DNA of 44,285 bases from positions 1-44,285 of the forward strand of contig JAZDLE010000036.1 of the NCBI GenBank assembly GCA_043802315.1, written 5' to 3'. This DNA is from Nitrospirota bacterium. GTDB taxonomy: Bacteria > Nitrospirota > Thermodesulfovibrionia > Thermodesulfovibrionales > SM23-35. The notes below the pieces were generated by a model. It did no database searches. It worked only from the letters and a program-made list of their open reading frames with translations, and was not told the origin of the DNA. The position numbers and the translations under genes were made by a program. Shown piece after piece: positions 344 through 43,606 of the stretch (position 1 is its first letter; each line of letters begins with the position of its first letter).

Positions 344-1271
344 TGATCTTCTTAATCACATAGATGGGTTTTCTCTGGCTTTCATGATAGACCCTCACGA
401 GCATCTCACCAAGAAGGCCCATTCCGATAAGCTGAATCCCAACGATAATCAAGAGAGCACCGAGCAGGAGAAGAGGTCTCCCCCCGATATTATGTCCGGA
501 AAAGATTTTATCTACAGCCAGGTAAAGGGATATGAGGAAACCGAGGAATCCGCTTATGACACCTACGGGACCAAAGAATTGAATTGGTTTCGTGGAAAAG
601 CTCTGGAGAAATTTTACGGTAATTAAATCCAAGACGACCTTTATCGTTCGTGAAATACCATATTTTGATCTTCCCTTGAGCCTCGGATGGTGCACAACCT
701 CTACCTCTGCAACCCTCACACCATACCAGCTCGCAACAGCAGGGATAAACCTGTGCATCTCTCCATAGAGTTTCAGGTTTTTTATCACATCCCTTCTGTA
801 TGCCTTCAGAGAGCAACCATAATCGTGGAGCTTTACGCCTGTAACTTTACTGATAAGCCAGTTTGCTAACAGGGAGGGAAGCGTTCTCCTGAAAAACGGG
901 TCCTTCCTTTTTTTTCTCCATCCACTCACGAGGTCATTGTCTTTTGTCAGTTCAAGAAGTTTCGGGATATCAGCAGGGTCATTCTGGAGGTCACCATCCA
1001 TTGTTACGACAATGTCTCCGCGTGCAAAATCGAATCCTGCTGCAAATGCTGCAGTCTGGCCGAAGTTGCGTCTCAGGCTCAGTACAACAACCCTGGTATC
1101 CTTAGCCTGAATTTCTTCAAGGAGAGAGAGAGTCCTGTCAGTGCTTCCATCATCTACAAAAAGTATCTCGTATTCCTTTTTTAGAGAATCAAGGGTTTCC
1201 TTCAGTTTCTCATAGAGGATAGGTATACTTTCCTCTTCATTGTAAAGAGGTATGATTACGGAAAGGGTCAT
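333..1271 (-). CDS. Family 2 glycosyltransferase, polyprenyl-phosphate sugar transferase type (ArnC/GtrB/DPM1-like)
   Basis: 312-aa ORF. It has the GT-A signature VIIPLYNEEESI..FVDDGSTD..MDGDLQNDP and two C-terminal TM helices. It sits directly downstream of an ArnT-like GT39 gene, with a TAATG-type junction at 1271. Confidence 0.85.
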   Translation of the reverse strand: MTLSVIIPLYNEEESIPILYEKLKETLDSLKKEYEILFVDDGSTDRTLSLLEEIQAKDTRVVVLSLRRNFGQTAAFAAGFDFARGDIVVTMDGDLQNDPADIPKLLELTKDNDLVSGWRKKRKDPFFRRTLPSLLANWLISKVTGVKLHDYGCSLKAYRRDVIKNLKLYGEMHRFIPAVASWYGVRVAEVEVVHHPRLKGRSKYGISRTIKVVLDLITVKFLQSFSTKPIQFFGPVGVISGFLGFLISLYLAVDKIFSGHNIGGRPLLLLGALLIIVGIQLIGMGLLGEMLVRVYHESQRKPIYVIKKIIGP

Positions 1272-3376
1272 TAATACGTTCCTGGTTTTTCTTCTCTCAT
1301 GCCCTTAAAATCATAGCACAGCAAGAGAGAATAATCTCTGATTTTCTCATTGTTAATGTAAACCGTAAAGAGCCTTTTCTCGATCTTTTCAAAAGCACTG
1401 GCTACCGGTTCGGGTACCTTGGTATCCCCTATTCTAACAAGGATTGCATTATGATGGAGGAGTTCATGAAATCCAGGCCAGAGGTCGTACTGGTTCATCC
1501 TGCGGTCAAGGTTAATGCAATAAGTGATAGGATGTCCTTTTACATAAAAGGCGAGTTCACTTGAAACCTGGTACCTATCAGAAAATATAAATATGGCCCT
1601 CCCTTCATACATCTCTTCGTATATCTTCGTCACCTCTGACCCAAGTTCTTTCCAACCTCTTAGCCTGCTGGTAGGGTCTTTTTTGGCAGGAAGGTTAAGG
1701 ATTGAAGGATAATGCGCCAAGGCCGTAACGACCACAGATAGGAGAACTGCTGTTGCAATGAAAATCATTTTGCCTTTTCTTTCAGGAAAAACCTTTTTGG
1801 AGAATGCAGAAAAAGAAAGAATGCCTGTTATATAACCTGGTAGTGCCCAGTTTGCCTGCACCTTACCCTGAAGACTTTTTAAAAGGAAAAAGGCAATGAT
1901 AGGAATAGAAAACCAGAAAAGAAGATCACCCCCTTTCTGTTTCCGTTGGTTCCAGAGAGAGAAGGTCATGAGTATAAAGAGAAGAGGGGTAATTACTCCA
2001 AACTGTGAGCCAACAAATTCAAAGAAACTTCTTAAGGCTATTCTTGCGCCCTCTGCTACATGTGCCTGTCCTGCTGTATGTCTCAGGGTGACCCACTCAT
2101 GGTCTGCATTCCACAGTAATACAGGACTGAAGACCAGAAGGCTTATGATAAAAGCGATATAAGGACCTGTCGTTAGTAAAAGTCTCCTCTCCCTCAAGAA
2201 TAAGAAAAGAAAAGCGCAGAGATAAAAGAGTGCCATGGTGTATTTTGTGAGAAGACCAAAGCCCACTGAAAAGCCAAGGAGGATCCAGTATATGAGTGAT
2301 GTGTGATTAGTTCGTGATGCGTAATCCGTGATGCGTGATGAGTCAAATCCCTCCTTGCCCCCTTTAGAAAAAGGGGGGGTGGGGGGATTACTGGAGTGTA
2401 AGGGATGATATGAGTTTTCTATTGAAAGATAAAACAAAAATAATGACAGTATCCAAAAGAATATAAAGGGTGAATCTATGGTGAATATTATCCCGAATGT
2501 TGAAAAAAGTGGGATAATCTGTATCAATATTGCTGAGAAAAGTCCGACCTGTTTATCATACAGTTTCTTCCCGAGGATATACATGTAGATACTACTGAGA
2601 TAAGAGAAGATGACCGCCATCATTCTGATACCAAAGACATTGTCTCCGAGTATCATAGTGCCAAAATATATGAGATATGCGATCATCGGCCCTTTTGAGT
2701 AATAACTCAAATCAAGCCTCCGCGACCACTCCCAGTAATGAGCTTCGTCAGGACTCAAATCGAGAAATCCCTTCTGGATGTAATATATGCGGAAAAGACT
2801 AAGTGCAAGGAGGAAAACAAAGAGTATAGTAGAGTAAGGTTTTATCTTAAACCTCTCATATGCCATGTTATAGAAACCAATTAAACATAGTGCTAACCCA
2901 ATGCCGACGAGTCCGCCCACAAGAGAATCTGAAGGATAATGTACACCAACGTAGATCCTTGAAAAACTCACAAGAAAGGCAATGATTAAAAAGGCATATC
3001 GCAACCTGTTTTTAAAGAGGATAAGAAATGGTACTGCAAAAGCAAAACTGTTCGCAGCATGGCTTGAAGGCATCGAGTAAGAACTGCTACAACCAACAAG
3101 GAGGTGGACACCTTCGAGTTCGTTGCAGGGCCGCGGCCTTTCAAAAATATGTTTAAGGATATATAAACCCCAATCGGATAAAGCTAAGGAGGCAAAACCG
3201 AGCACTAAGACAAGGCATGCCTTTTTCCAGTCCTTGTAAAAGAACCATCCTACGAAAGGGAATATCAGGAGATATGCCTTGCTTGTAAAAAAAGGCATGG
3301 CAACATCGAAAAGTCTGTTCTGGAGGTCTCTGTTTATGAAGAAAAAGATGAGGGTATCTACCTCAGGAAGGCTCAT
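1271..3376 (-). CDS. Fusion protein: N-terminal PAP2 (acid phosphatase / undecaprenyl-PP phosphatase-like) domain plus GT39 (ArnT/PMT-like) polyprenyl-phosphate-dependent glycosyltransferase
   Basis: 701-aa ORF. PAP2 motifs: KHIFERPRP, SMPSSH, SRIYVGVHYPSD. These are followed by a polytopic GT39-like region (DEAHYWEWSRRLDLSYYSKGPMIAY..). It contains an in-frame repeat insertion at 2313-2389. Confidence 0.75.
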   Translation of the reverse strand: MSLPEVDTLIFFFINRDLQNRLFDVAMPFFTSKAYLLIFPFVGWFFYKDWKKACLVLVLGFASLALSDWGLYILKHIFERPRPCNELEGVHLLVGCSSSYSMPSSHAANSFAFAVPFLILFKNRLRYAFLIIAFLVSFSRIYVGVHYPSDSLVGGLVGIGLALCLIGFYNMAYERFKIKPYSTILFVFLLALSLFRIYYIQKGFLDLSPDEAHYWEWSRRLDLSYYSKGPMIAYLIYFGTMILGDNVFGIRMMAVIFSYLSSIYMYILGKKLYDKQVGLFSAILIQIIPLFSTFGIIFTIDSPFIFFWILSLFLFYLSIENSYHPLHSSNPPTPPFSKGGKEGFDSSRITDYASRTNHTSLIYWILLGFSVGFGLLTKYTMALFYLCAFLFLFLRERRLLLTTGPYIAFIISLLVFSPVLLWNADHEWVTLRHTAGQAHVAEGARIALRSFFEFVGSQFGVITPLLFILMTFSLWNQRKQKGGDLLFWFSIPIIAFFLLKSLQGKVQANWALPGYITGILSFSAFSKKVFPERKGKMIFIATAVLLSVVVTALAHYPSILNLPAKKDPTSRLRGWKELGSEVTKIYEEMYEGRAIFIFSDRYQVSSELAFYVKGHPITYCINLDRRMNQYDLWPGFHELLHHNAILVRIGDTKVPEPVASAFEKIEKRLFTVYINNEKIRDYSLLLCYDFKGMREEKPGTY
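2313..2389. repeat. Composite repeat inside the GT39 CDS: duplicated decamer CGTGATGCGT (2313-2322, 2327-2336) followed by a G/C-tract nested palindrome (2346-2389)
   Basis: The + strand reads cgtgatgcgtaatccgtgatgcgtgatgagtcaaatccctccttgccccctttagaaaaagggggggtggggggatt. The - strand CDS reads it as ..NPPTPPFSKGGKEGFDSSRITDYASRT.. Confidence 0.85.
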
Positions 3377-8749: not shown

Positions 8750-9369
8750 TTAGCCCTTTGCCTTTAGCTCTTTACCTTTAAGATTTCTTATCCTCTCCAT
8801 TATCTCCCTGGTTATCCTCTCCTGGAAGTGTTTGTCTGTCTCCTTTTTTTCGATCTTTAAGGGCGTGCCAAATACCACTCTTATCTTAGCAGGTCTTATA
8901 AACTTGGCACCTACAGGGAGAGCCTTGTCTGTTCCTTCAATAAGTGTTGGAACAACAGGAGTGGCACTCATGGCTGCAATCATGCCCACTCCTCTTTTGG
9001 CATCAAGCAAGCTACCATCAGCACTCCGACCCCCTTCTGGGAAAAGAACGAGAACCCCTCCTTGTTTAAGCCGGGAAACAGCCTCCTTTATTGTGGAGGG
9101 CTGCGGCCTATCACGGCTCACAGGGAAACAGAAGACTTTAATTGCCCTACCGATTAAGGGGATCCTAAAAAGTCCTTCCTTTGCAATGTATGCAGCCCGC
9201 CTTTTTAAAGCCACTCCGATAACAGGGGGGTCTAGATAACTGACATGGTTCGCTGCTACGATAACCCCACCTTTATCCGGGATATTCTCAGAGCCAATCA
9301 CCTCGAGTCTGTTAATAACTTTGAAAAAAAAATAAAAGATTGTCCTTAGGAGTTGGTAAAAAAGATAAC

Positions 9370-9373
<4 letters not shown>
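8750..9373 (-). CDS. plsC: 1-acyl-sn-glycerol-3-phosphate acyltransferase
   Basis: 207 aa with the HX4D motif AANHVSYLDPPV and the FPEGGRS motif. Confidence 0.85.
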
Positions 9374-10053
<680 letters not shown>

Positions 10054-10072
10054 TTATTACTTCTTTTTAATA

Positions 10073-10094
10073 CCCCACAGTCTCTGCTGTGGGG
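10073..10094. repeat. Hairpin repeat copy 1: CCCCACAG-TCTCTG-CTGTGGGG
   Basis: 8-bp G/C-clamped stem with a 6-nt loop, preceded by ATA. It has the same flank and loop as the copy at 10167-10188. Confidence 0.8.
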
Positions 10095-10097
10095 TTT

Positions 10098-10138
10098 CCT
10101 CCTACCCCCACTTTGGCAAAGGGGGGCGAGGGGGGATT
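10098..10138. repeat. G/C-tract nested palindrome, 5'-degenerate copy
   Basis: cctcctacccccactttggcaaaggggggcgaggggggatt. The inner arms CCCCCACTTT/AAAGGGGGG and the right outer arm GGGGGGATT are intact. Confidence 0.75.
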
Positions 10139-10166
10139 TTAAATTAATAAAATTTACCTAAAGATA

Positions 10167-10188
10167 CCCCGCCGTCTCTGCGGCGGGG
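10167..10188. repeat. Hairpin repeat copy 2: CCCCGCCG-TCTCTG-CGGCGGGG
   Basis: The architecture matches 10073-10094. The two stem differences are compensated on the opposite arm. Confidence 0.8.
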
Positions 10189-10228
10189 AGGTTCATTAAC
10201 CTCATTTGCGAAGTTTTTGCTGCTTCAA

Positions 10229-10263
10229 CTCCCCCTTTTCTAAAGGGGGAGTAAGGGGGATTA
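10229..10263. repeat. G/C-tract nested palindrome, copy lacking the left outer arm
   Basis: ctcccccttttctaaagggggagtaagggggatta. Confidence 0.7.
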
Positions 10264-10307
10264 CTAATCATAACCCTTCATGCCTTTTAGACATTAATGC
10301 TTTATTC

Positions 10308-11645
10308 TTATGTTGTTAACCTTTTCAAAATATCAAAGAATCCAGGGAATGATATGCTGACAGATGAGACATCATTGATTGTTGTTGTCCCATCAGCAAT
10401 GATGGCTGCAATTGCCATCGCCATTGCAATCCTGTGGTCCTTGTGACTTTCTATAACTGCACCTTTTAATCCCCTCCCACCTGTGATATTCAGGCCATCT
10501 TCGAACTCCTCGATTTCTGCTCCCATCTTTCTGAGTTCCGTTGATATCGTTTTTATCCTGTCAGACTCCTTTACTCGAAGCTCCTCTGCCCCCCTGATAG
10601 TTGTGATTCCCGTACCCTGAGTTGCTACCACGCAAAAAATAGGAAATTCATCAATCAGAGAAGGGATTCTTTCTTTTGTTATGTGAATGCTCTTCAATTC
10701 CCTATCACCTTTACAATATATGTCAGCAATAGGTTCACCTGATACTTCCTTGATATTGGAGATTCTGATATCCGCCCCCATCTCTTGAAGTACACTGAGA
10801 AGGCCAGTCCTTGTAGGATTAATGCCTACTCCCTTGATCAGAATCTCAGAATCTCTGATTAGCAATGTCCCGGCGATAAAGAATGCAGCAGATGAGAAAT
10901 CCCCTGGCACATACATCTCTAAACCTATCAGTTCTGTTCCACCTTGTATCTTTATATGAAAGTCTTCAATTTTTATTTCTGCACCAAAGGCAGGCAGCAT
11001 CCGTTCTGTGTGGTCCCTTGACTTAAGAGGTTCTATAACTTCTGTCTCTCCTTCTGCATAAAGGCCTGCGAGGAGAATAGCTGACTTAACCTGAGCGCTC
11101 GCTACAGGCATGGTATATTGAATTGCCCTCAGTCTTTTGCCCCGAATAGCAATGGGTGGATATCTATCGTCACACCTTGCTATTATCTCCGCACCCATCT
11201 GTCTTAAGGGGATGATGACCCTCGACATTGGCCTTTGCCTTAAGGATTCATCTCCTGTCAGGACAGAAAAGAAAGGATTTCCTGAAAGCACTCCTGAGAG
11301 GAGCCTCATTGTCGTGCCTGAGTTTCCGCAATCAATAGTATCAATTGTCTCTTTAAGCCCGTATAACCCCTTACCATGGATTATGAGTTCACCTGAAAAT
11401 CCCCCCTCGCCCCCCTTTACTAAAGGGGGGATGGGGGGGATTACATTTTCTTCTATTTCAATGCCAAGCATCCTCATGGCATTTACAGTGCTTATTGTAT
11501 CTTCAGCCCTGAGGAAGTTTTTTATTATGCTTTTTCCTTTTGAGAGGGAAGAGAATATTACAGCCCTGTGGGATATGGACTTATCAGGGGGAGGAGAAAA
11601 ATCACCTTTAAAACTTTTTGCCTTGCTGAGCTCAATTCTGTCCAA
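10308..11645 (-). CDS. aroA: 3-phosphoshikimate 1-carboxyvinyltransferase (EPSP synthase) carrying a 15-codon palindromic-element insertion
   Basis: 445 aa with ..PPDKSISHRAVIFSSL.., ..GNSGTTMRLL.. and ..KESDRI.. motifs. Only a TTG start (11645) is available upstream of the conserved N-terminus. Confidence 0.9.
   Translation of the reverse strand: MDRIELSKAKSFKGDFSPPPDKSISHRAVIFSSLSKGKSIIKNFLRAEDTISTVNAMRMLGIEIEENVIPPIPPLVKGGEGGFSGELIIHGKGLYGLKETIDTIDCGNSGTTMRLLSGVLSGNPFFSVLTGDESLRQRPMSRVIIPLRQMGAEIIARCDDRYPPIAIRGKRLRAIQYTMPVASAQVKSAILLAGLYAEGETEVIEPLKSRDHTERMLPAFGAEIKIEDFHIKIQGGTELIGLEMYVPGDFSSAAFFIAGTLLIRDSEILIKGVGINPTRTGLLSVLQEMGADIRISNIKEVSGEPIADIYCKGDRELKSIHITKERIPSLIDEFPIFCVVATQGTGITTIRGAEELRVKESDRIKTISTELRKMGAEIEEFEDGLNITGGRGLKGAVIESHKDHRIAMAMAIAAIIADGTTTINDVSSVSISFPGFFDILKRLTT
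11408..11452. repeat. G/C-tract nested palindrome (intact copy) inside aroA
   Basis: aatcccccctcgcccccctttactaaaggggggatgggggggatt, 45 nt. aroA on the - strand reads it as IPPIPPLVKGGEGGF. The + strand shadow ORF reads the same DNA as PPSPPFTKGGMGG. Confidence 0.9.
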
Positions 11646-12507
11646 TACCTTCCCTCAGTGTCCGGGCCCTTTCGAATTCCCTTTCGAGGGATTCGAAATC
11701 AGAAGCCCTGAGATACTGGCTTAACCGTTCGAGATTGTTTTTGAAGATCTCGATAGATTTGAGGAGATTATCCTTATTCAGGATACAGATATCACGCCAG
11801 AGTTCTGGAGAACTCGATGCAATCCTTGTGGTACCCATAAAGCCCGGACCTGCAAATTTCAGGTATGCACCATCTATATCTGCTACAGCATTTACTATAG
11901 CATATGCGATGAGATGAGGCAGGTGGCTTACCATTGCATAAATCCTGTCATGTTCGTCGGGATTGATCAGTTCTACGATGCAGCCAAGGGTTTTCCATAT
12001 GTGGATAAGCTTCTCGAGAGCATCACCATGGGTTTTTTCCGTAGGCGTGAGAATACATTTCGCACCCCTGAAGATATCAGCTGTTGCTGTATCAATCCCT
12101 GAACGGCTGCTTCCTGCTATAGGGTGACCACCGATAAAGTAGGTACCTTCAGGCATGAGTGTCTCCATGTCGCAGACAAGCCCGCCTTTTACACTCCCAA
12201 CATCAGTAACTAAGGATCCTTTTTTCAAAGCAGGACGGATTTTTTTTGCAATTTCAATAAAGTTTCCGACAGGAGTTGCAAGTAAGACAAGATCAGAGTC
12301 ATCACATGCCCTTACAGGATCAAGTTCAAAGGAATCGATGATTCCCATCTCTTTTGCTCTCTGAAGGTTTTCGAGCCTCCTACCGTGTCCAGTGAGATGG
12401 TTGCAGAGGTTATACTTCTTCATTGCAAGGGCAAAAGAAGCACCGATTAATCCAACGCCGAGTATTGTTACCCTATTAAAAAAAGGATGAACCGGAGAGT
12501 CGGTCAT
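11632..12507 (-). CDS. tyrA: Prephenate (or arogenate) dehydrogenase
   Basis: 291 aa with the Rossmann N-terminus [19 protein letters not shown] and a GGHPIAGS motif. It lies in the aromatic amino-acid operon. Confidence 0.85.
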
Positions 12508-13529
12508 ATTTCCCTTCCAACAGCAGCGGCTATTGGTTTTAATTCCTCCATCAGTTTCTTAAATGCTGAAGGCTTTATGGACTGCTCTCCATCCGAAAGC
12601 GCCTCCTCAGGATTTATATGCACCTCAATGATAAGTCCATCTGCTCCTGCTGCTATAGCAGCCTTTGACATGGGCGCAACAAGGTCCCACTTGCCTACAC
12701 CATGGCTAGGATCAACAAAAACGGGAAGATGGGTAAGTTGCTTTAGAACCGGTACTGCGCTGATGTCAAGAGTATTCCTGGTTGCAGTCTCGAAGGTCCT
12801 CACGCCCCGTTCGCAGAGGATTACATTCTGGTTACCCCTTGACATTATATACTCGGCAGCCATGAGCCATTCTTTTATTGTTGCCGATAAACCCCTTTTA
12901 AGCAGAACTGGTTTGTCGCATGTGCCAACATCGAGGAGGAGTCTGAAGTTCTGCATGTTCCTTGCTCCAATCTGCATTATATCAGCGTACCTTACAATGA
13001 CCTCGATATCCCTGGGATCCATCAGCTCTGTTACAATGGGGAGCCCTGTTTTTTCTCTTGCCGCTGAGAGATATTTCAATCCCTCTTCCCCGAGTCCCTG
13101 GAATGAGTAAGGAGAAGTTCGAGGTTTAAATGCACCTCCCCTGAGAAAGGAAGCGCCAGCATCCTTGACCTTCTCTGCTATACTTATTATCATGGTCATG
13201 CTTTCTACAGCGCATGGACCTGCTATCACTTGTATCTTTTTACCTCCAATAACATTTCCTCTAACATCAATAGAGGTATCTTTTGCCTTGAAATCTCTGC
13301 TTGCAAGCTTATAGGGTTTGAGTATCCGCATGACATCTTCGACACCAGGCATCACCCTTATAGCATCCTCTTCCTCTTCTGCTATCTTAGAGGTGTCTCC
13401 GATAACCCCGATTACAGTCCTCTCAGTACCCTTTGAGATGTTTGCCTTGAGACCGCGGCTTTCGAGTTTCTTCACAATTCGCCTTAAATCATCTTCGGTT
13501 ACATTTGGTTTTAAAACAATGATGTCCAT
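12504..13529 (-). CDS. aroF: 3-deoxy-7-phosphoheptulonate (DAHP) synthase, type I-beta, with an N-terminal ferredoxin-like regulatory domain
   Basis: 341 aa. The core is ..[40 protein letters not shown].., preceded by a ~70-aa extra domain as in the Thermotoga-type enzyme. A GGAGG sequence lies upstream of the ATG. Confidence 0.85.
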
Positions 13530-20284: not shown

Positions 20285-20378
20285 TCCCCTCACTTGACGG
20301 GAGGGGACAAAGGGGAGGGTGAGCTAAAAGATATGGTTACCCCCTCCCTTACGCTCCCCCATCAAGGGGGAGGGGGGG
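20285..20378. repeat. Two divergent G/C-tract palindromes (20285-20323 and 20340-20378)
   Basis: tcccctcacttgacgggaggggacaaaggggagggtgag and ccccctcccttacgctcccccatcaagggggaggggggg. Both have nested C-tract/G-tract arms in an otherwise AT-rich spacer. Confidence 0.6.
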
Positions 20379-20509
20379 CAGTGTAGAATGTGAAGTTGTG
20401 TCAGTCTGAATAGTTATTCAAATATGCCTGATCCTTATAGCGGGAAAAGAGATGTTCACAAAGAGAGACATATTGTTGATAAAATGAGTCGTAAGGTTTA
20501 TAGTTTTTC

Positions 20510-35837: not shown

Positions 35838-37025
35838 TTATTTCAACAGGTGTTTTACCCTCAGCCGCAGGGCATTGAGTTTTATAAAACCTTCTGCATC
35901 TTTCTGATTATATACATTTTCTGCTTCAAATGTTGCAAGCCCGGGGTGATAAAGAGAATTTGGAGATTTTCTTCCGACGACGTAACAATTTCCCTTATAT
36001 ATCTTGATCCTGACTGTACCATTAACATCTTTCTGTACATCATCCATGAGGGTCTGCAATGCTTTCCTCTCCGGAGAAAACCAGTATCCATAATATATAA
36101 GCTCAGAATAGCGCGTTATCAGTGAGTCTCTGAGGTGCAGTATCTCCCTGTCAAGGGTTATTGACTCTATTGCCCTGTGGGCAACATGGAGAACTGTGCC
36201 TCCAGGAGTTTCATAAACGCCCCTTGATTTAATTCCGACATATCTGTTTTCTACCATATCAACCCTTCCAACTCCATGTTCACCAGCAAAGTGGTTCAAT
36301 CTCGCAAGCAGGGTTGCTGGAGACAAAAGTTCATTATTGATTGCAACAGGGTCACCTTTCTCATAAGAGATTTCAACAGAGAGAGGCTTATCAGGTGCCT
36401 TCTCAGGCGGTACGATCATGGTATACATGTCGGGTGGGGGTTCCTGCCAGGGGTCTTCCAGAATTCCTCCTTCGTAGCTGATGTGAAAGAGGTTCCTATC
36501 GGTACTATAAGGTTTTTCCTTTGTTGCTGTAACAGGGATACCATGCTTTTCGGCATATTCAATCAGGGATTGCCTTGAATTGAATGGCCATTCCCTCCAT
36601 GGTGCTATAACCTTTATGGTAGGTTTAAATGCATAATAGGTTAGTTCAAATCTCACCTGGTCATTACCCTTTCCAGTCGCACCATGGGCAACAGCCTCAG
36701 CGCCTTCCTTCTCTGCTATCTCAATCTGTCTCTTAGCAATAAGAGGTCTCGCTATTGACGTCCCGAGCAGATATGAACCCTCGTAAACTGCATTTGCCCT
36801 GAGCATGGGGAATATATAGTCTTTTACGAACTCCTCTTTTAAGTCCTCTACATAAACTTTTGCTGCACCCGTCTTCAATGCCTTTTCTCTTATGGGATCT
36901 GTCTCTTCTCCCTGGCCAAGATCCGCATAGAAGGCAATTATTTCTGTGCTGTACTGCTCTTTTAGCCATTTTATTGCCACGGAGGTATCAAGACCTCCCG
37001 AGTATGCAAGGATTATTTTATTCAT
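35838..37025 (-). CDS. argG: Argininosuccinate synthase
   Basis: 395 aa with [12 protein letters not shown].., ..[15 protein letters not shown].. and ..STDRNL.HIS.EG.. motifs. Confidence 0.95.
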
Positions 37026-37042
37026 TCAAACCCCCTCTATGA

Positions 37043-37089
37043 GCAGAGAGCTAAGAGCACCTGTACACTCATAGCTCTTAGCTCTCTGC
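37043..37089. repeat. Perfect 16-bp inverted repeat GCAGAGAGCTAAGAGC - 15 nt - GCTCTTAGCTCTCTGC
   Basis: Read directly from the sequence. It lies 18 nt upstream of the argG start codon (in the 5' leader on the - strand) and 230 nt downstream of the fur stop. Confidence 0.85.
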
Positions 37090-37164
37090 TATGAGCTTCT
37101 TCAAGTCATAAAACCATAGCATAAATCTAAAAAAAATGTAAAATGCATCAATGGAAAATTAAGT

Positions 37165-37208
37165 AATCCCCCCCGCCCCCCCTTGAGAACAGGGGGGGCG
37201 GGGGGGAT
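37165..37208. repeat. G/C-tract nested palindrome (intact, intergenic copy)
   Basis: aatcccccccgcccccccttgagaacagggggggcggggggatt. Confidence 0.85.
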
Positions 37209-37319
37209 TTGAATGATTATTTTTGGAGAAAAATATAAAACACTCTTGAACAAGGTCTAAATTTCAGCTCAAGAATAAAGGGGAATGATGAGAGGGTGGA
37301 GCTATCGAGAGAGCGGAAT

Positions 37320-37751
37320 TCATTTCCTCGTCTTCCTGCATTTACTACAGTATCCCTTTATCTCGAGAGTATGGGTTACGCCTTCGAACCCTTTCTTTTT
37401 GCATATCTTATTCTGAAGACCTTCTAACGCCTCAGAATAAAACTCTATGACACTGCCGCATGAAATACAGAGCATATGATCATGATGGTTTCTGCCGAAA
37501 GTCTGTTCATAGTGGGCATGTTTTTCAGTTCTTTCCACCTGCTCAATGAGACCGCTTTCAAGAAGGAGAGGAAGAGTTCTGTAAATGGATGCCTTTGAAA
37601 CTTTTAGTCCTTTTTTCTTCATTCCGATATAAAGTTCCTCAGGGTCAAAATGGCCGTATCGAGAAGAAATATCCTTGAGTATCAACTCTCTCTCTCTTGT
37701 AAATTTAAGACCTTTACTCTTAAGATGTTCTCTGAATACCCTTTCTCGCAT
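37320..37751 (-). CDS. fur: Fur-family metalloregulator
   Basis: 143 aa with ..LK.T..R..IL......GHF..EELY......G..VS.ASIYRTL..L...GLI.., HHDH..C..CG..IEF and a C-terminal CxxC. Confidence 0.85.
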   Translation of the reverse strand: MRERVFREHLKSKGLKFTRERELILKDISSRYGHFDPEELYIGMKKKGLKVSKASIYRTLPLLLESGLIEQVERTEKHAHYEQTFGRNHHDHMLCISCGSVIEFYSEALEGLQNKICKKKGFEGVTHTLEIKGYCSKCRKTRK

Positions 37752-41738: not shown

Positions 41739-42422
41739 TCAATATAGATAAAGAACAGAGAACTTAGCCCTTTCAGATGGATTCGCTGCATTTTCTGCAT
41801 CTACTTCTATCGTATAAAGATACGGATAACTCATTACCCGTATTTCACCAGAATTAGAATCCACCACTCGATTGTTTATCAGACCTTCGTCTCCTGCGCT
41901 ATTACCCTCAACTGTGTCCACTATTTTTGAATATACATTATATGTAGGAACTGTCCCGAGAGTAAAGACCATGTCATAGGAAGTACCTGTATTAGGGTTG
42001 ATGACCATGGTGTTATCACAACCAGCCCAAGAAGTAGTTGGTGTATTAAGTTTTGCTGCTAATCCTGTAAAAGATGTTCCAGATAGATTTGTACCGGTAC
42101 AAGTAGCGGGTGTTGTAATAGCAGGAGCAAGAGCCGATAAATCACTTAAAAAAGAGGCAGTTCTTGATGTATCTCCTCTAAGCCCAGCAAGCTGATAGGT
42201 GATGTCAGTGCCGCCCATAGCAGCCTCAGATGCGGTTTTGTATCTTTTTTGCATACCTGAAATCTGGGTTCCCGTTGTTATCATATAGATCAATCCTGCC
42301 ATGATGACGAGCGTAATAGCCGAGAGCAAGAGAACCATTACAAGGGCAATGCCTTTTTCGTTCATGAGTTGAGAACTCGACTGCTGACTTTTGACCTCTG
42401 GCTGCTGACTTCTCATGATCAC
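41739..42422 (-). CDS. PilX-like minor pilin / pseudopilin
   Basis: ..EKGIALVMVLLLSAITLVIMAGLIYM.. followed by ..YKTASEAAMGG.. has a PilX_N-like layout. ATG 42422 overlaps the upstream stop (ATGA). An alternative start, ATG 42365 (MNEKG..), would skip the SQQPEVKSQQS segment encoded by a duplicated decamer. Confidence 0.55.
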   Translation of the reverse strand: MIMRSQQPEVKSQQSSSQLMNEKGIALVMVLLLSAITLVIMAGLIYMITTGTQISGMQKRYKTASEAAMGGTDITYQLAGLRGDTSRTASFLSDLSALAPAITTPATCTGTNLSGTSFTGLAAKLNTPTTSWAGCDNTMVINPNTGTSYDMVFTLGTVPTYNVYSKIVDTVEGNSAGDEGLINNRVVDSNSGEIRVMSYPYLYTIEVDAENAANPSERAKFSVLYLY

Positions 42423-43606
42423 CTCAGATTATTCGGTCTTACAACCAATGTGTATAATTTCCACCGATAATTTACGTTTGCCCCAATATCAAAATTACGT
42501 CCTCCTCCGATGGCAGGGTCGCCGACATATATTGTCGTAGGCGTATGAGTGTAATTTACATCTCTTTGTCCCTCGTGGGCTAAAACATATACTCTTACCT
42601 CTTTTACCTGATCTCTTATCTGTTGGGCTGTAAGTGCGGATATGTCATCAGTAGTGTTATCAATAGTCCCATCACCGTCAGTATCCCGGCGATAGACTAC
42701 CTGCATATCAGCAGCACAGTCAAGAAGTGGGAGGAAGTTATAGTTTCCACCAGCATCATGGTTCATTGTAGCTTTGAAAAGGATGCCTGTATTTGGAGCA
42801 CACCTCTGGGGCGTATTAGTAGCTGGTCTTTGGATAAAATAATCTGACCTGTTGAACGGTCTTACAGGAAAGCTTGCGCTGCTATCGTTAACGCCGTATA
42901 TAATATGAGTGTCCGTTGAAACCGTTGGTGCAAAGCCAGCGGTAATACTGAATGTTGTAGTAAATGCTCCACCACTCACAATCAGTGACCTGCTGTTTAA
43001 ATCAGTGCTTCCCGGAAAAACAACGATTACCCTGTCTGTTCCGTTGAGGTCTTCGCTTGCAATGCCCCATGTCCTTTTGGTATCGCCTGAGGTTTGCGTA
43101 GTCCATTTTTGGCATGCATCATTCCTGGCGACATTTACAGCTTTTATCACCAAATAATCTGAACCATCAAAGATGTCATTTGGACTGCTGAAAGTTGCAT
43201 TATTTGCGCTAACAAGAGCCTTAGGTGCATCATTTGGTGCATCATTGAGATTGAACGGATTTGTTCCTCCTTCACTATAACCGGGTAGATGTTCCCAGAA
43301 ATTTCCATCACCATCAGTATCAGCAATTCCTGTTACATTCCATGGCAATCCGTACCCTGCATGCCCTATATCCTGCTTTAAGATCTCGAGACCTACAATT
43401 CCCTCTATATTGGTCTCAGCTATCTTGCTTTGTTGCTTGAATTGGGTTAATAGTCCCGTAAATATCTGGGAACCTGCCGCCATAACAAGCACAAAGACAA
43501 CCATTGTTATCAACAACTCTATTAAAGTAAACCCTGCTTTAGAGTTAATCCCCCCTTGCCCCCCTTTAGTAAAGGGGGGATGGGGGGATTTTTTGCGCTT
43601 AATCAT
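42419..43606 (-). CDS. PilW-like minor pilin with a prepilin N-terminal cleavage/methylation motif; the leader peptide is expanded by a palindromic element
   Basis: 395 aa. MIKRKKSPHPPFTKGGQGGINSKAG/FTLIELLITMVVFVLVMAAG.. is the class III signal. The ATG overlaps the upstream stop (ATGA). Confidence 0.7.
   Translation of the reverse strand: MIKRKKSPHPPFTKGGQGGINSKAGFTLIELLITMVVFVLVMAAGSQIFTGLLTQFKQQSKIAETNIEGIVGLEILKQDIGHAGYGLPWNVTGIADTDGDGNFWEHLPGYSEGGTNPFNLNDAPNDAPKALVSANNATFSSPNDIFDGSDYLVIKAVNVARNDACQKWTTQTSGDTKRTWGIASEDLNGTDRVIVVFPGSTDLNSRSLIVSGGAFTTTFSITAGFAPTVSTDTHIIYGVNDSSASFPVRPFNRSDYFIQRPATNTPQRCAPNTGILFKATMNHDAGGNYNFLPLLDCAADMQVVYRRDTDGDGTIDNTTDDISALTAQQIRDQVKEVRVYVLAHEGQRDVNYTHTPTTIYVGDPAIGGGRNFDIGANVNYRWKLYTLVVRPNNLR
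43547..43590. repeat. G/C-tract nested palindrome (intact copy) inside the prepilin leader-coding region
   Basis: aatccccccttgcccccctttagtaaaggggggatggggggatt. The - strand CDS reads it as SPHPPFTKGGQGGIN. Confidence 0.9.

Follow-up and report, generated by a model that had tools for sequence, protein, structure and literature searches.

The aroA gene of a Nitrospirota contig contains, at positions 11398-11442 of the window (the whole 44,285-nt stretch analyzed here), a palindromic segment that is most likely a short non-autonomous hairpin repeat, translated within the gene and tolerated by the enzyme as a 16-residue, probably disordered surface loop. Its membership in a dispersed palindromic repeat family, here called family-1, is shown by further copies in the window and in metagenome sequences.

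An in-frame palindrome within aroA

The gene and the features within it are as follows.

10308..11645, minus strand: aroA, coding for a class II-like EPSP synthase of 445 aa; an intact ORF whose start overlaps tyrA, as it does in relatives.
11398..11442, minus strand: family-1 palindromic repeat within aroA, identified by arm detection and repeat-family membership.
11397..11444, minus strand: net gain of 16 codons, V68-F83 (VIPPIPPLVKGGEGGF), over AroA orthologues that have no insert, from orthologue alignment and translation.

The identity of the enzyme is clear from its match to 3RMT (E = 8e-119), the presence of PF00275 in its homologues, and the motifs DKSISHR and NSGTTMR, which show little or no variation across the alignment. 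On the coding strand the palindrome reads AATCCCCCCCATCCCCCCTTTAGTAAAGGGGGGCGAGGGGGGATT. An inverted-repeat search resolves it into two 22-nt arms, 11398-11419 and 11421-11442, which are separated by 1 nt and paired at 19 of 22 positions (86% complementary). The corresponding hairpin has two 9-bp G/C stems with a 3x3-nt internal mismatch bubble between them and a 3-nt loop, and its calculated RNA folding energy is -33.6 kcal/mol (z = -2.8 versus dinucleotide shuffles). The initial annotation had described an exact 45-nt, 15-codon palindrome at 11408-11452. Translation and the inverted-repeat search of the window confirm an in-frame palindromic element within aroA, although those coordinates are displaced by about +10/11 nt, the mismatch bubble means that the palindrome is not exact, and the gain over 429-aa insert-free orthologues is 48 nt, or 16 codons. 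The peptide I69-F83 maps to 11397-11441, as against 11398-11442 for the palindrome itself.

We rejected a terminator reading of the aroA hairpin, as the 4 T that follow the stem are too few; the consensus scan did not call this copy a terminator, and a search of window positions 9000-13000 against Rfam gave no match at E <= 1.

An AlphaFold (AF2) model of AroA has a mean pLDDT of 86, and the sole segment below 50 is residues 70-83, which lie at a beta-hairpin tip, flanked by strands 63-67 and 84-92. Apart from the insert, the model superposes on the class II EPSPS structures 3SLH and 4EGR with TM scores of 0.90-0.91 (Foldseek). The segment is missing from solved EPSP synthases and from about half of the close orthologues, including those of 429-430 aa. 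These observations support the earlier suggestion that AroA tolerates a Pro/Gly-rich surface loop here, and the orthologue alignment and structure mapping that had been proposed place the insert in a predicted loop. On the model, the insert is most likely a Pro/Gly-rich surface loop at the beta-hairpin tip, probably disordered. Between two insert-bearing alleles dN/dS is 0.20, which points to purifying selection on insert-bearing aroA.

A dispersed palindromic repeat family

The family-1 consensus, aAAtCCCCCCtnnCCCCCCTTTAnTAAAGGGGGGnnaGGGGGGaTTt, describes an element of 45-47 nt with the ends (A/T)AATCC...GGATT(T/A) and sharp boundaries, the information content dropping to 0 beyond +/-23 nt. 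Its 21-nt core, CCCCCCTTTANTAAAGGGGGG, occurs with up to 3 mismatches six times in the 44-kb window (0.00 expected, from 100 shuffles) and in at least 120 metagenome stretches with unrelated contexts; copies are also present at eight loci of related genomes. The hosts are Nitrospirota (Thermodesulfovibrionia) MAGs and at least one Thermodesulfobacteriota-like contig. The density in the window is 0.07-0.14 copies per kb, and any copy number per genome is an extrapolation from that figure. The other copies in the window are listed below.

2346..2389, minus strand: copy in frame in a PAP2+PMT_2 membrane glycosyltransferase gene (1271..3376), encoding NPPTPPFSKGGKEGF.
43547..43590, minus strand: in-frame copy within the leader-coding part of a PilW-like prepilin gene (42419..43606), encoding SPHPPFTKGGQGGI.
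37165..37209, strand not given: intergenic copy whose 19-nt arms pair perfectly, flanked by argG (35838..37025) and a Fur-family gene (37320..37751).
10096..10138, strand not given: degenerate copy in the cmk-aroA spacer, missing from the ~93%-identical relative L002.
10218..10262, strand not given: copy with a truncated left arm, close behind the aroA stop, common to the window and L002.

The peptide of the PilW-like copy directly precedes the G|FTLIELL methylation motif, and this prepilin may instead start at a codon downstream of the repeat.

Family-1 appears to be mobile, and we infer that some mobilizing activity lay behind its original spread. Among 68 full copies, direct repeats of at least 4 nt, as a target-site duplication would leave, were absent at every boundary offset, and flank matches of 2-3 nt occur at ~1-5 times chance, inconsistently across boundary offsets. 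Information content outside the element is ~0, with no strong flanking target motif; TTCAG is weakly enriched, at 6% of ends. CAGGTG adjoins the aroA, FabF, and L147 copies and is also present at the empty aroA site, and is too rare to call. No transposase was found among those genes of the window that were annotated. Carriage by phages was considered and finds no support in IMG/VR, where the core matches only two contigs, one with half an element.

Copies inside genes occupy stop-free phases

Among the matches listed, 84 copies were assessable, each with at least 600 nt of context, and we defined a long ORF as one of at least 200 codons. On this basis 39 of the 84 (46%) lie in frame within long ORFs, versus 65% of random 45-nt windows. 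These 39 intragenic copies, again among the matches listed, occupy phases 0 and 2 only, which are the two stop-free phases, and encode the peptide PPxPP(F/L)xKGGxGG. Hosts confirmed by Pfam are SMC, UvrA, RecG, PriA, a MetH-like protein, FabF (two copies), Wzy/TPR, PMT_2+PAP2, and PilW. About 20 genes broken by the stop-containing phase would be expected if frame were irrelevant, and there is no clear case among the 84 copies listed. One candidate, L119, was rejected as a broken gene: a transporter-like ORF ends there and the next begins. Lengths divisible by 3 were seen in 18/28 intragenic copies versus 11/25, a difference too small to rely on.

The design of the element probably accounts for this pattern. 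Its C6/G6 tracts flanking TTTAnTAAA leave two of the three frames stop-free in either orientation, with both giving about the same peptide, and family-1 would be able to live in genes because of this arrangement; the third frame has a TAA, and copies in that frame would be purged from genes. Occupation of only the stop-free phases favors translation of the element and disfavors its removal at the RNA level. We thus picture the aroA copy as being transcribed and translated along with the remainder of the gene, and the conservation of frame suggests that the insert peptide is actually made.

The same site in other lineages

Many Thermodesulfovibrionia AroA proteins carry this insert at the identical site, so that it is not strain-specific, and it recurs in assemblies made independently from different samples. 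The bearers are related Thermodesulfovibrionia, rather than unrelated AroA orthologues with homologous residues encoded by non-palindromic DNA, the finding named at the outset as counting against an insertion; most encode the homologous residues by the same palindromic DNA, and a few keep non-palindromic remnants. The site is variable: in other lineages it is occupied by either of two further palindromes or by heptamer repeats, the occupant in L004 being a true GTAG-tagged 28-nt palindrome, and many lineages have decayed or truncated remnants such as KGGERGF and GDESRF. Versions of the insert have 13, 16, or 24 residues across lineages, with length differences in multiples of 3.

Within the insert it is the nucleotides that are conserved, not the amino acids. 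At four-fold degenerate sites the window and L027 agree at 8/8 positions in the insert and at 29/94 elsewhere, and more generally the stems are invariant at such sites between lineages in which other synonymous sites are saturated, the changes being confined to the bubble and loop. Because a purely neutral passenger would drift, the invariance of the stems suggests that some nucleotide-level force also acts on them; candidates are function, repair templated by the hairpin, repeated replacement, and recent transfer. We do not favor gene conversion by copies elsewhere in the genome as the cause, since the AroA copies of different genomes share a bubble sequence, ATC/CGA (in the window, L002, and L027), that is rare elsewhere in family-1.

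A mosaic patch around the element

Comparison with close relatives places the element within a short block whose ancestry appears to differ from that of the rest of the gene.

11338..11498, minus strand: mosaic patch of ~160 nt, aroA nt 148-308, 53-61% identical to the sister contig L001.
11320..11522, minus strand: putative imported recombination tract, aroA nt 124-326, identical to L002 save 1 nt in the bubble of the element.

L001 lacks the element, and beyond the patch its aroA is 99.6-100% identical to that of the window (100% over nt 1-147 and 1023/1028 over nt 311-1338), as against 55-61% over nt 148-310. Window and L002 agree at 115/115 positions in the patch flanks and at 94-96% in the rest of the gene; window and L206 agree at 54/54 and 53/59 positions in the patch (100% and 90%) and at 81% elsewhere. 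Among L001, L003, and L205, which lack the element, patch divergence is 3-12%, close to their background. The patch of the window thus resembles those of more distant lineages, and its arrival by short-patch homologous recombination is most likely. In this strain, therefore, a ~0.2-kb element-bearing segment was most likely imported from another lineage, as opposed to a fresh transposition, with an L206-like lineage as the likely donor; the direction of the event is the one suggested by identity patterns and parsimony. Metagenome contigs could be mixed-strain consensus assemblies.

On an AroA tree built without the patch (a crude NJ tree), at least 15 presence/absence changes are needed. This number, the varied repeat families at the site, and patch identities that contradict the gene background lead us to reject a single ancient insertion followed by vertical descent as the sole history.

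Alternative explanations

That no insertion occurred, the segment being an old lineage-specific AroA loop that is palindromic by chance or else an assembly or sequencing artifact, is extremely improbable. Its presence at one site in many Thermodesulfovibrionia would suit an old loop, yet the 45-nt sequence recurs in genes and spacers of the window and in at least 120 metagenome stretches, close relatives lack it, assemblies from different samples contain it independently, and the patch-free tree calls for repeated gain or loss; in practice, the multi-copy family refutes this reading. The initial annotation had also raised the alternative that the element is cut out of the transcript or passed over in translation, in the manner of T4 gene 60 or the Magnusiomyces mitochondrial inserts. 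Short coding-sequence inserts bypassed by ribosomes do occur elsewhere (PMC5009743) and the aroA hairpin is very stable, but bypassed inserts break the frame, whereas aroA and the 39 listed intragenic copies keep it open. With 39 of 84 listed copies in frame in long ORFs, no clear case of the ~20 split genes expected from the TAA phase, AroA inserts that vary by multiples of 3 (13, 16, and 24 residues), and no stop codon after a take-off site, we consider non-translation very unlikely.

Domestication deserves more weight, although we think it improbable. Here the hairpin would tune expression of aroA or its operon (through pausing, attenuation, or mRNA stability), or the loop would have a role in the protein, and either would be selected. 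That the stems stay conserved at synonymous sites even between lineages whose dS is saturated, while bubble and loop alone vary, fits such a role, as do the family-rare bubble common to the window, L002, and L027, the high stability of the hairpin (-33.6 kcal/mol), and retention of the insert in many lineages. However, aroA alleles that are 99.6-100% identical beyond the patch are polymorphic for its presence, many lineages have only remnants (KGGERGF, GDESRF) or unrelated repeats at the site, and family-1 is also found in unrelated genes and intergenic DNA. Moreover, the loop is predicted to be disordered, the hairpin is not terminator-like and has no Rfam match, and recent patch transfer accounts for part of the conservation. 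The element seems selfish or neutral, not useful.

A bolder proposal, which we hold tentatively and regard as rather unlikely, is that family-1 is active across phyla as an ultra-short protein-coding palindrome, mobilized or maintained by machinery of its own and distinct from RAYT/GTAG REPs. Under this proposal the AroA hairpin would be a true integration hot spot and not simply permissive, and three or more unrelated palindromic families, as well as heptamer repeats, would have colonized it independently; the stems would be actively kept, by hairpin-templated repair or by selection for DNA or RNA function; and whole element-bearing alleles would pass between species by short-patch recombination.

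Implications and comparison with known systems

With a translated, tolerated repeat in aroA as the preferred reading, in-frame selfish palindromes now extend beyond Rickettsia and the GTAG/CGTC REP groups to free-living anaerobic Nitrospirota and at least one Thermodesulfobacteriota-like contig. Although the element spans just ~45 nt, nearly half of the listed copies appear to be intragenic, including in core replication, repair, and biosynthesis genes. The AroA hairpin is a natural experiment on loop gain, being found empty, with family-1, with two other palindromes, with heptamers, or with decayed remnants, and it suggests that such an insertion can cross species within a ~0.2-kb recombination patch. 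There are practical consequences too, as palindromes with G/C tracts may mislead gene callers, hold spurious antisense ORFs open, and cause bubbles in metagenome assembly. Within the literature library searched, no paper has the peptide motifs PPFSKGG, PPFTKGG, PPLLKGG, PPLVKGG, PPLIKGG, or PPFIKGG, and none ties Thermodesulfovibrio or Nitrospirae to such repeats.

Other short elements resemble family-1 in part. MITEs are similarly small and non-autonomous, with inverted-repeat symmetry and presence/absence polymorphism between relatives (PMC10969869); by contrast, no target-site duplication was found for family-1 and no candidate parent IS was identified, it has no internal non-repeat segment, and 45 nt is below the usual MITE size. 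The inserts of T4 gene 60 and Magnusiomyces mitochondria are also short insertions in coding sequence, but they interrupt the frame and must be skipped (PMC5009743), whereas family-1 keeps it open and is filtered for stop-free phases. The patch itself recalls the homeologous "small variable segments" inside genes of close strains, attributed to homeologous recombination (Touzain et al. 2010, PMC2884548), in being a ~160-nt block with ~40% divergence in an otherwise near-identical gene; it differs in holding a mobile palindrome and in having a likely donor that can be named (L206-like).

The closest parallels are with palindromes that live within protein genes. In the summary given by PMC10969869, RPEs (Ogata et al. 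2000, 2002) are dispersed palindromes of ~100-150 bp described as peculiar to Rickettsia, many of them in frame in unrelated housekeeping genes, with a conserved peptide, presumed to sit at fold-tolerant sites, and viewed as selfish DNA. Measured against that account, family-1 is likewise dispersed, palindromic, hairpin-forming, and in frame in unrelated genes with a conserved peptide, and its insertion site is predicted by AF2 to be fold-compatible; it is set apart by size and host, with 45-47 nt, C6/G6 tracts, and free-living Nitrospirota. Intragenic REPs of the GTAG/CGTC-tagged super-families (Di Nocera et al. 2013, PMC3733652) are a minority lying wholly within ORFs, particularly those for replication and repair such as uvrA and recB; each contributes 10-30 residues, which by the authors' argument occupy loops or linkers. 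Family-1 is a stem-loop of similar size and its hosts likewise include UvrA, RecG, PriA, and SMC, but its consensus lacks a GTAG or CGTC tag, and ~46% of its listed copies are intragenic, while most REPs lie outside genes. The aroA element is a Nitrospirota example of a known phenomenon, selfish palindromes within protein genes, whether RPE-like or intragenic-REP-like.

A hairpin-forming repeat lies in frame within aroA

The initial annotation described an exact 45-nt palindrome in aroA, the EPSP synthase gene, at 11408-11452. A palindromic element is indeed present, but its position and size needed correction: the peptide then bracketed and the inverted-repeat arms both lie about 10 nt further left, and the palindrome is imperfect.

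10308..11645, minus strand: aroA ORF, 445 aa
11397-11441, minus strand: codons for the bracketed peptide, I69-F83
11398-11419 and 11421-11442: inverted-repeat arms, 22 nt each, 86% complementary, with 1 nt between

The coding strand reads AATCCCCCCC-ATC-CCCCCTTTA-G-TAAAGGGGGG-CGA-GGGGGGATT, giving a hairpin with two 9-bp stems, a 3 × 3 bubble, and a 3-nt loop; its RNA folding energy is -33.6 kcal/mol (z = -2.8 against dinucleotide shuffles). An antisense ORF of 195 aa (11137..11724, plus strand) overlaps aroA and stays open across the palindrome, reading ENPPSPPFTKGGMGGIT, which illustrates how palindromic elements can prop up spurious opposite-strand ORFs.

The element belongs to a dispersed repeat, here called family-1, whose 21-nt core (≤3 mismatches) has six matches in the window, compared with 0.00 expected.

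11398-11442: full-length, in frame in aroA
2346-2389: full-length, inside a PAP2+PMT_2 glycosyltransferase ORF (1271..3376), in frame and encoding NPPTPPFSKGGKEGF
37165-37209: full-length, intergenic, argG / Fur-family gene
43547-43590, minus strand: full-length, in frame in the leader of a PilW-like type IV prepilin (ORF 42419..43606, minus strand)
cmk-aroA spacer: two degenerate copies

The exact core was found in at least 120 stretches of public metagenome contigs, and 120 copies pooled from the matches listed give the consensus aAAtCCCCCCtnnCCCCCCTTTAnTAAAGGGGGGnnaGGGGGGaTTt, with information content falling to zero past ±23 nt. Outside the ATT end stands T, followed by T or A, from which we take the unit to be 45-47 nt. 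Neither target-site duplications nor a strong flanking motif were found around the copies, and an Rfam search returned no match to the element.

Among 80 aroA neighborhoods of GTDB genomes, family-1 was found in Thermodesulfovibrionia-like loci only, and no copy was found in 53 more distant aroA loci, mainly of Nitrospirales together with some other phyla. The GC content of core-bearing contigs runs from 33% to 66%, and one at 56% GC (L163) has a complete element at 557 and a NuoL whose best named relatives, at 77-86% identity, are Deltaproteobacteria/Thermodesulfobacteriota metagenome-assembled genomes (MAGs); on both grounds family-1 probably spans at least two phyla. Among viral contigs, just two carry the core.

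Several copies have unusual arrangements. A FabF ORF has the element twice, 153 nt apart, the copies and their flanks being identical (L146:1404 and 1557), a UvrA gene has a hybrid or nested copy (L189:4505; EKSPQPPFTKGGSYKNAPLIKGVGGIF), and in the aroA of L206 (2200-2290) the element is accompanied by a 24-nt partial repeat of its right half. In the window's cmk-aroA spacer, the perfect and mutually similar hairpins CCCCACAGTCTCTGCTGTGGGG (10073-10094) and CCCCGCCGTCTCTGCGGCGGGG (10167-10188, called terminator-like) bracket a strain-specific family-1 copy; in the relative L002 this block of ~127 nt, hairpins and family-1 copy together, is swapped for unrelated sequence. The adjoining cmk (9370..10029, minus strand) has an in-frame stop at 9820-9822, codon 70 when 9370-10029 is translated; L002, 95% identical, has Tyr there (THIT*TSG versus TNITYTSG), and this could reflect a pseudogene, a sequencing error, or readthrough.

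Copies within genes are probably translated

Two of the three frames of the palindrome lack stops in either orientation, both reading PPxPP(F/L)xKGGxGG, and the third contains TAA. We examined 84 metagenome copies, among the matches listed, flanked in each direction by 600 nt or more of context, scoring as embedded those within a stop-free frame of at least 200 codons that extends 25 codons or more beyond them both ways. By this criterion 39 of the 84 (46%) are embedded, compared with 65% of random 45-nt windows, and the embedded copies use phases 0 (26 copies) and 2 (15 copies) only, both copies in the FabF ORF being counted. Hosts confirmed by Pfam are SMC, UvrA, RecG, PriA, FabF (two copies), a Wzy_C/TPR protein, and a pterin/B12 methyltransferase. 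The element lies within or next to the hinge of SMC, between the UvrA interaction and DNA-binding domains, in the RecG wedge, and in a linker of the methyltransferase.

The initial annotation had raised removal or bypass of the element at the RNA level as an alternative to translation. Our main argument against it is that, were frame irrelevant, ~20 genes should be broken by the TAA phase, and none clearly is: only one of the 45 unembedded copies among the matches listed has an in-element stop between two long same-strand ORFs, and its translation reads as a gene boundary, where a small transporter subunit ends and the following gene begins. Genuine bypass inserts also interrupt the reading frame (PMC5009743), whereas the element in aroA leaves it open. 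With embedded copies using stop-free phases only, RNA-level removal or bypass is unlikely, and translation is the preferred reading. For the PilW-like prepilin, whose N-terminus would be MIKRKK[SPHPPFTKGGQGGI]NSKAG|FTLIELL with SPHPPFTKGGQGGI encoded by family-1, the leader would be unusually long if the copy is translated; the start codon may instead lie downstream.

AroA appears to tolerate the insert as a loop

Alignment of AroA with the solved EPSP synthases 3RMT and 5BS5 leaves a 15-16-residue gap precisely at the insert. The insert is not private to the window genome. An AlphaFold2 model (input alignment of 47 sequences; mean pLDDT 86.2, pTM 0.85) matches class II EPSPS structures with TM 0.90-0.91, and residues 70-83 are its sole segment with pLDDT <50. 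They are predicted to sit between strands 63-67 and 84-92, the two strands making up the β-hairpin of one folding unit, and from general EPSPS architecture the loop would lie remote from the active-site cleft. Between the insert-bearing alleles of the window and L002, dN/dS is 0.20, so insert-bearing aroA is under purifying selection. The aromatic operon is intact, as first described, with pheA, aminotransferase, DAHP synthase, tyrA, and aroA all intact and syntenic with relatives. These observations support the original reading that AroA tolerates an in-frame element as a loop.

Stem nucleotides are conserved and the segment was probably exchanged

Outside the insert, four-fold degenerate sites of aroA are saturated between insert-bearing lineages (31-56% identical), and across the same lineages the Pro/Gly codons of the insert remain CCC/GGG. 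At such sites the window matches L027 at 8/8 in the insert and 29/94 elsewhere, L005 at 8/8 and 48/108, and L013 at 8/9 and 34/101; substitutions in the element fall only in the bubble and loop apex. In these comparisons, the insert is conserved as DNA, not as peptide. The bubble pair ATC/CGA, rare in family-1, is common to the window, L002 (GTC), and L027, which favors a shared origin of the AroA copy over independent insertions of random copies.

The comparators, all metagenome assemblies, also reveal a divergent patch. Window aroA and that of an element-free sister contig, L001 (JGI Ga0643846_0065455; AroA of 429 aa), are 100% identical over nt 1-147 and match at 1023/1028 positions over nt 311-1338, whereas nt 148-310 are 55-61% identical and L001 is 48 nt shorter. 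Over nt 124-326 the window and L002 are identical bar 1 nt, in the bubble, against 94-96% identity elsewhere (~11 differences expected). Outside the patch, the window/L001 pair, L002, L003, and L205 are mutually 92-96% identical; the element-free patches of L001, L003, and L205 are 3-12% apart, near their background. In the window and L002, the element-bearing patch matches L206 at 54/54 and 53/59 positions, with 81% identity elsewhere. The most economical reading is that the ancestral state in this species complex was element-free and that homologous recombination brought in a ~0.2-kb element-bearing segment from an L206-like lineage, in a direction that we infer; the segment would later have moved between the lineages of L002 and the window. 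Recombination could have been anchored in the conserved flanks, among them the IDCGNSGTTMRLL-coding block. Such transfer would explain the constancy of the stem nucleotides only partly.

One site in AroA has several occupants

Among the best 120 AroA proteins, whose named members are all Nitrospirota or Thermodesulfovibrionales MAGs, 64 have at least four extra residues at the insert site; the remainder are 428-430 aa with none there. A DNA-level survey of aroA loci of GTDB species representatives reveals diverse occupants.

Occupants of the insertion site in aroA, by comparison locus
Same 45-nt palindrome: L002, L005, L007, L013, L027
Variants of the 45-nt palindrome: L006, L008, L009
Different ~55-nt G/C palindrome, then (CTCCGAA)n repeats: L010, L011, L020, L022
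Perfect 28-nt GTAG-tagged palindrome: L004
Heptamer repeats only: L024
Decayed remnants: L012, L015, L017
Nothing: 11 relatives

The ~55-nt family (consensus CACCCCCnCCCnnnCCCTCCCCCTYGAKGGGGGAGGGnnnGGGnGGGGGTG) is itself dispersed, with an intergenic, partly degenerate window copy at 20338-20382 and copies in seven metagenome loci, including L108:2452, L130:8717, L145:11260, L155:226, L156:2867, and L167:636. The L004 palindrome (753-780; GTAGGGGCGAACGACCGTTCGCCCCTAC) lies in frame in a Nitrospirota MAG AroA, encoding VGANDRSP; GTAG is the classic REP signature, and Nitrospirota is not among the phyla listed with GTAG repeats (PMC3733652). A crude neighbor-joining AroA tree, with the patch region left out, requires at least 15 presence/absence changes, and together with the several element types this argues that the hairpin site is repeatedly occupied by several repeat families. 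Recurrent occupation could reflect either targeting or merely tolerance.

Heptanucleotide tandem repeats occur in coding DNA in frame-keeping multiples, at window 2290-2345 (ORF 1271..3376) and in the AroA inserts of L020/L022 and L024, and another lies at 37042-37090; a CATCACG-like heptamer repeated seven times yields DSSRITDYASRTNHTSL, and (CTCCGAA)n yields SELRTPNSEL. For Geobacter metallireducens, heptamer-repeat elements have been reported inside genes (PMC2700814). A second AroA insertion site, after query residue 302, holds VNSSLVTRHSSLFA-type inserts in 14 homologues.

Relationship to known repeat systems

We found no description of family-1 in the literature searched, coverage of which was incomplete. 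The analysis adds the frame filter at the level of a whole family, the several repeat families on one AroA hairpin, and the probable recombination-patch origin in the window strain. The aroA patch fits the description of homeologous intragenic "small variable segments" that distinguish strains in other species (PMC2884548). As summarized in PMC10969869, RPEs are palindromic repeats that sit in frame inside genes unrelated to one another (Ogata 2000/2002), the same behavior as family-1, although family-1 is three times shorter and its hosts belong to other phyla. Similar too are the REPs that lie within genes, with uvrA, recB, and other repair genes prominent among the hosts (PMC3733652); however, family-1 lacks the GTAG/CGTC tag and is intragenic far more often. 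Because of its size, phyla, lack of tag, and higher intragenic share, family-1 belongs to neither the RPE nor the REP families, and it differs from MITEs, which have the target-site duplication that family-1 lacks.
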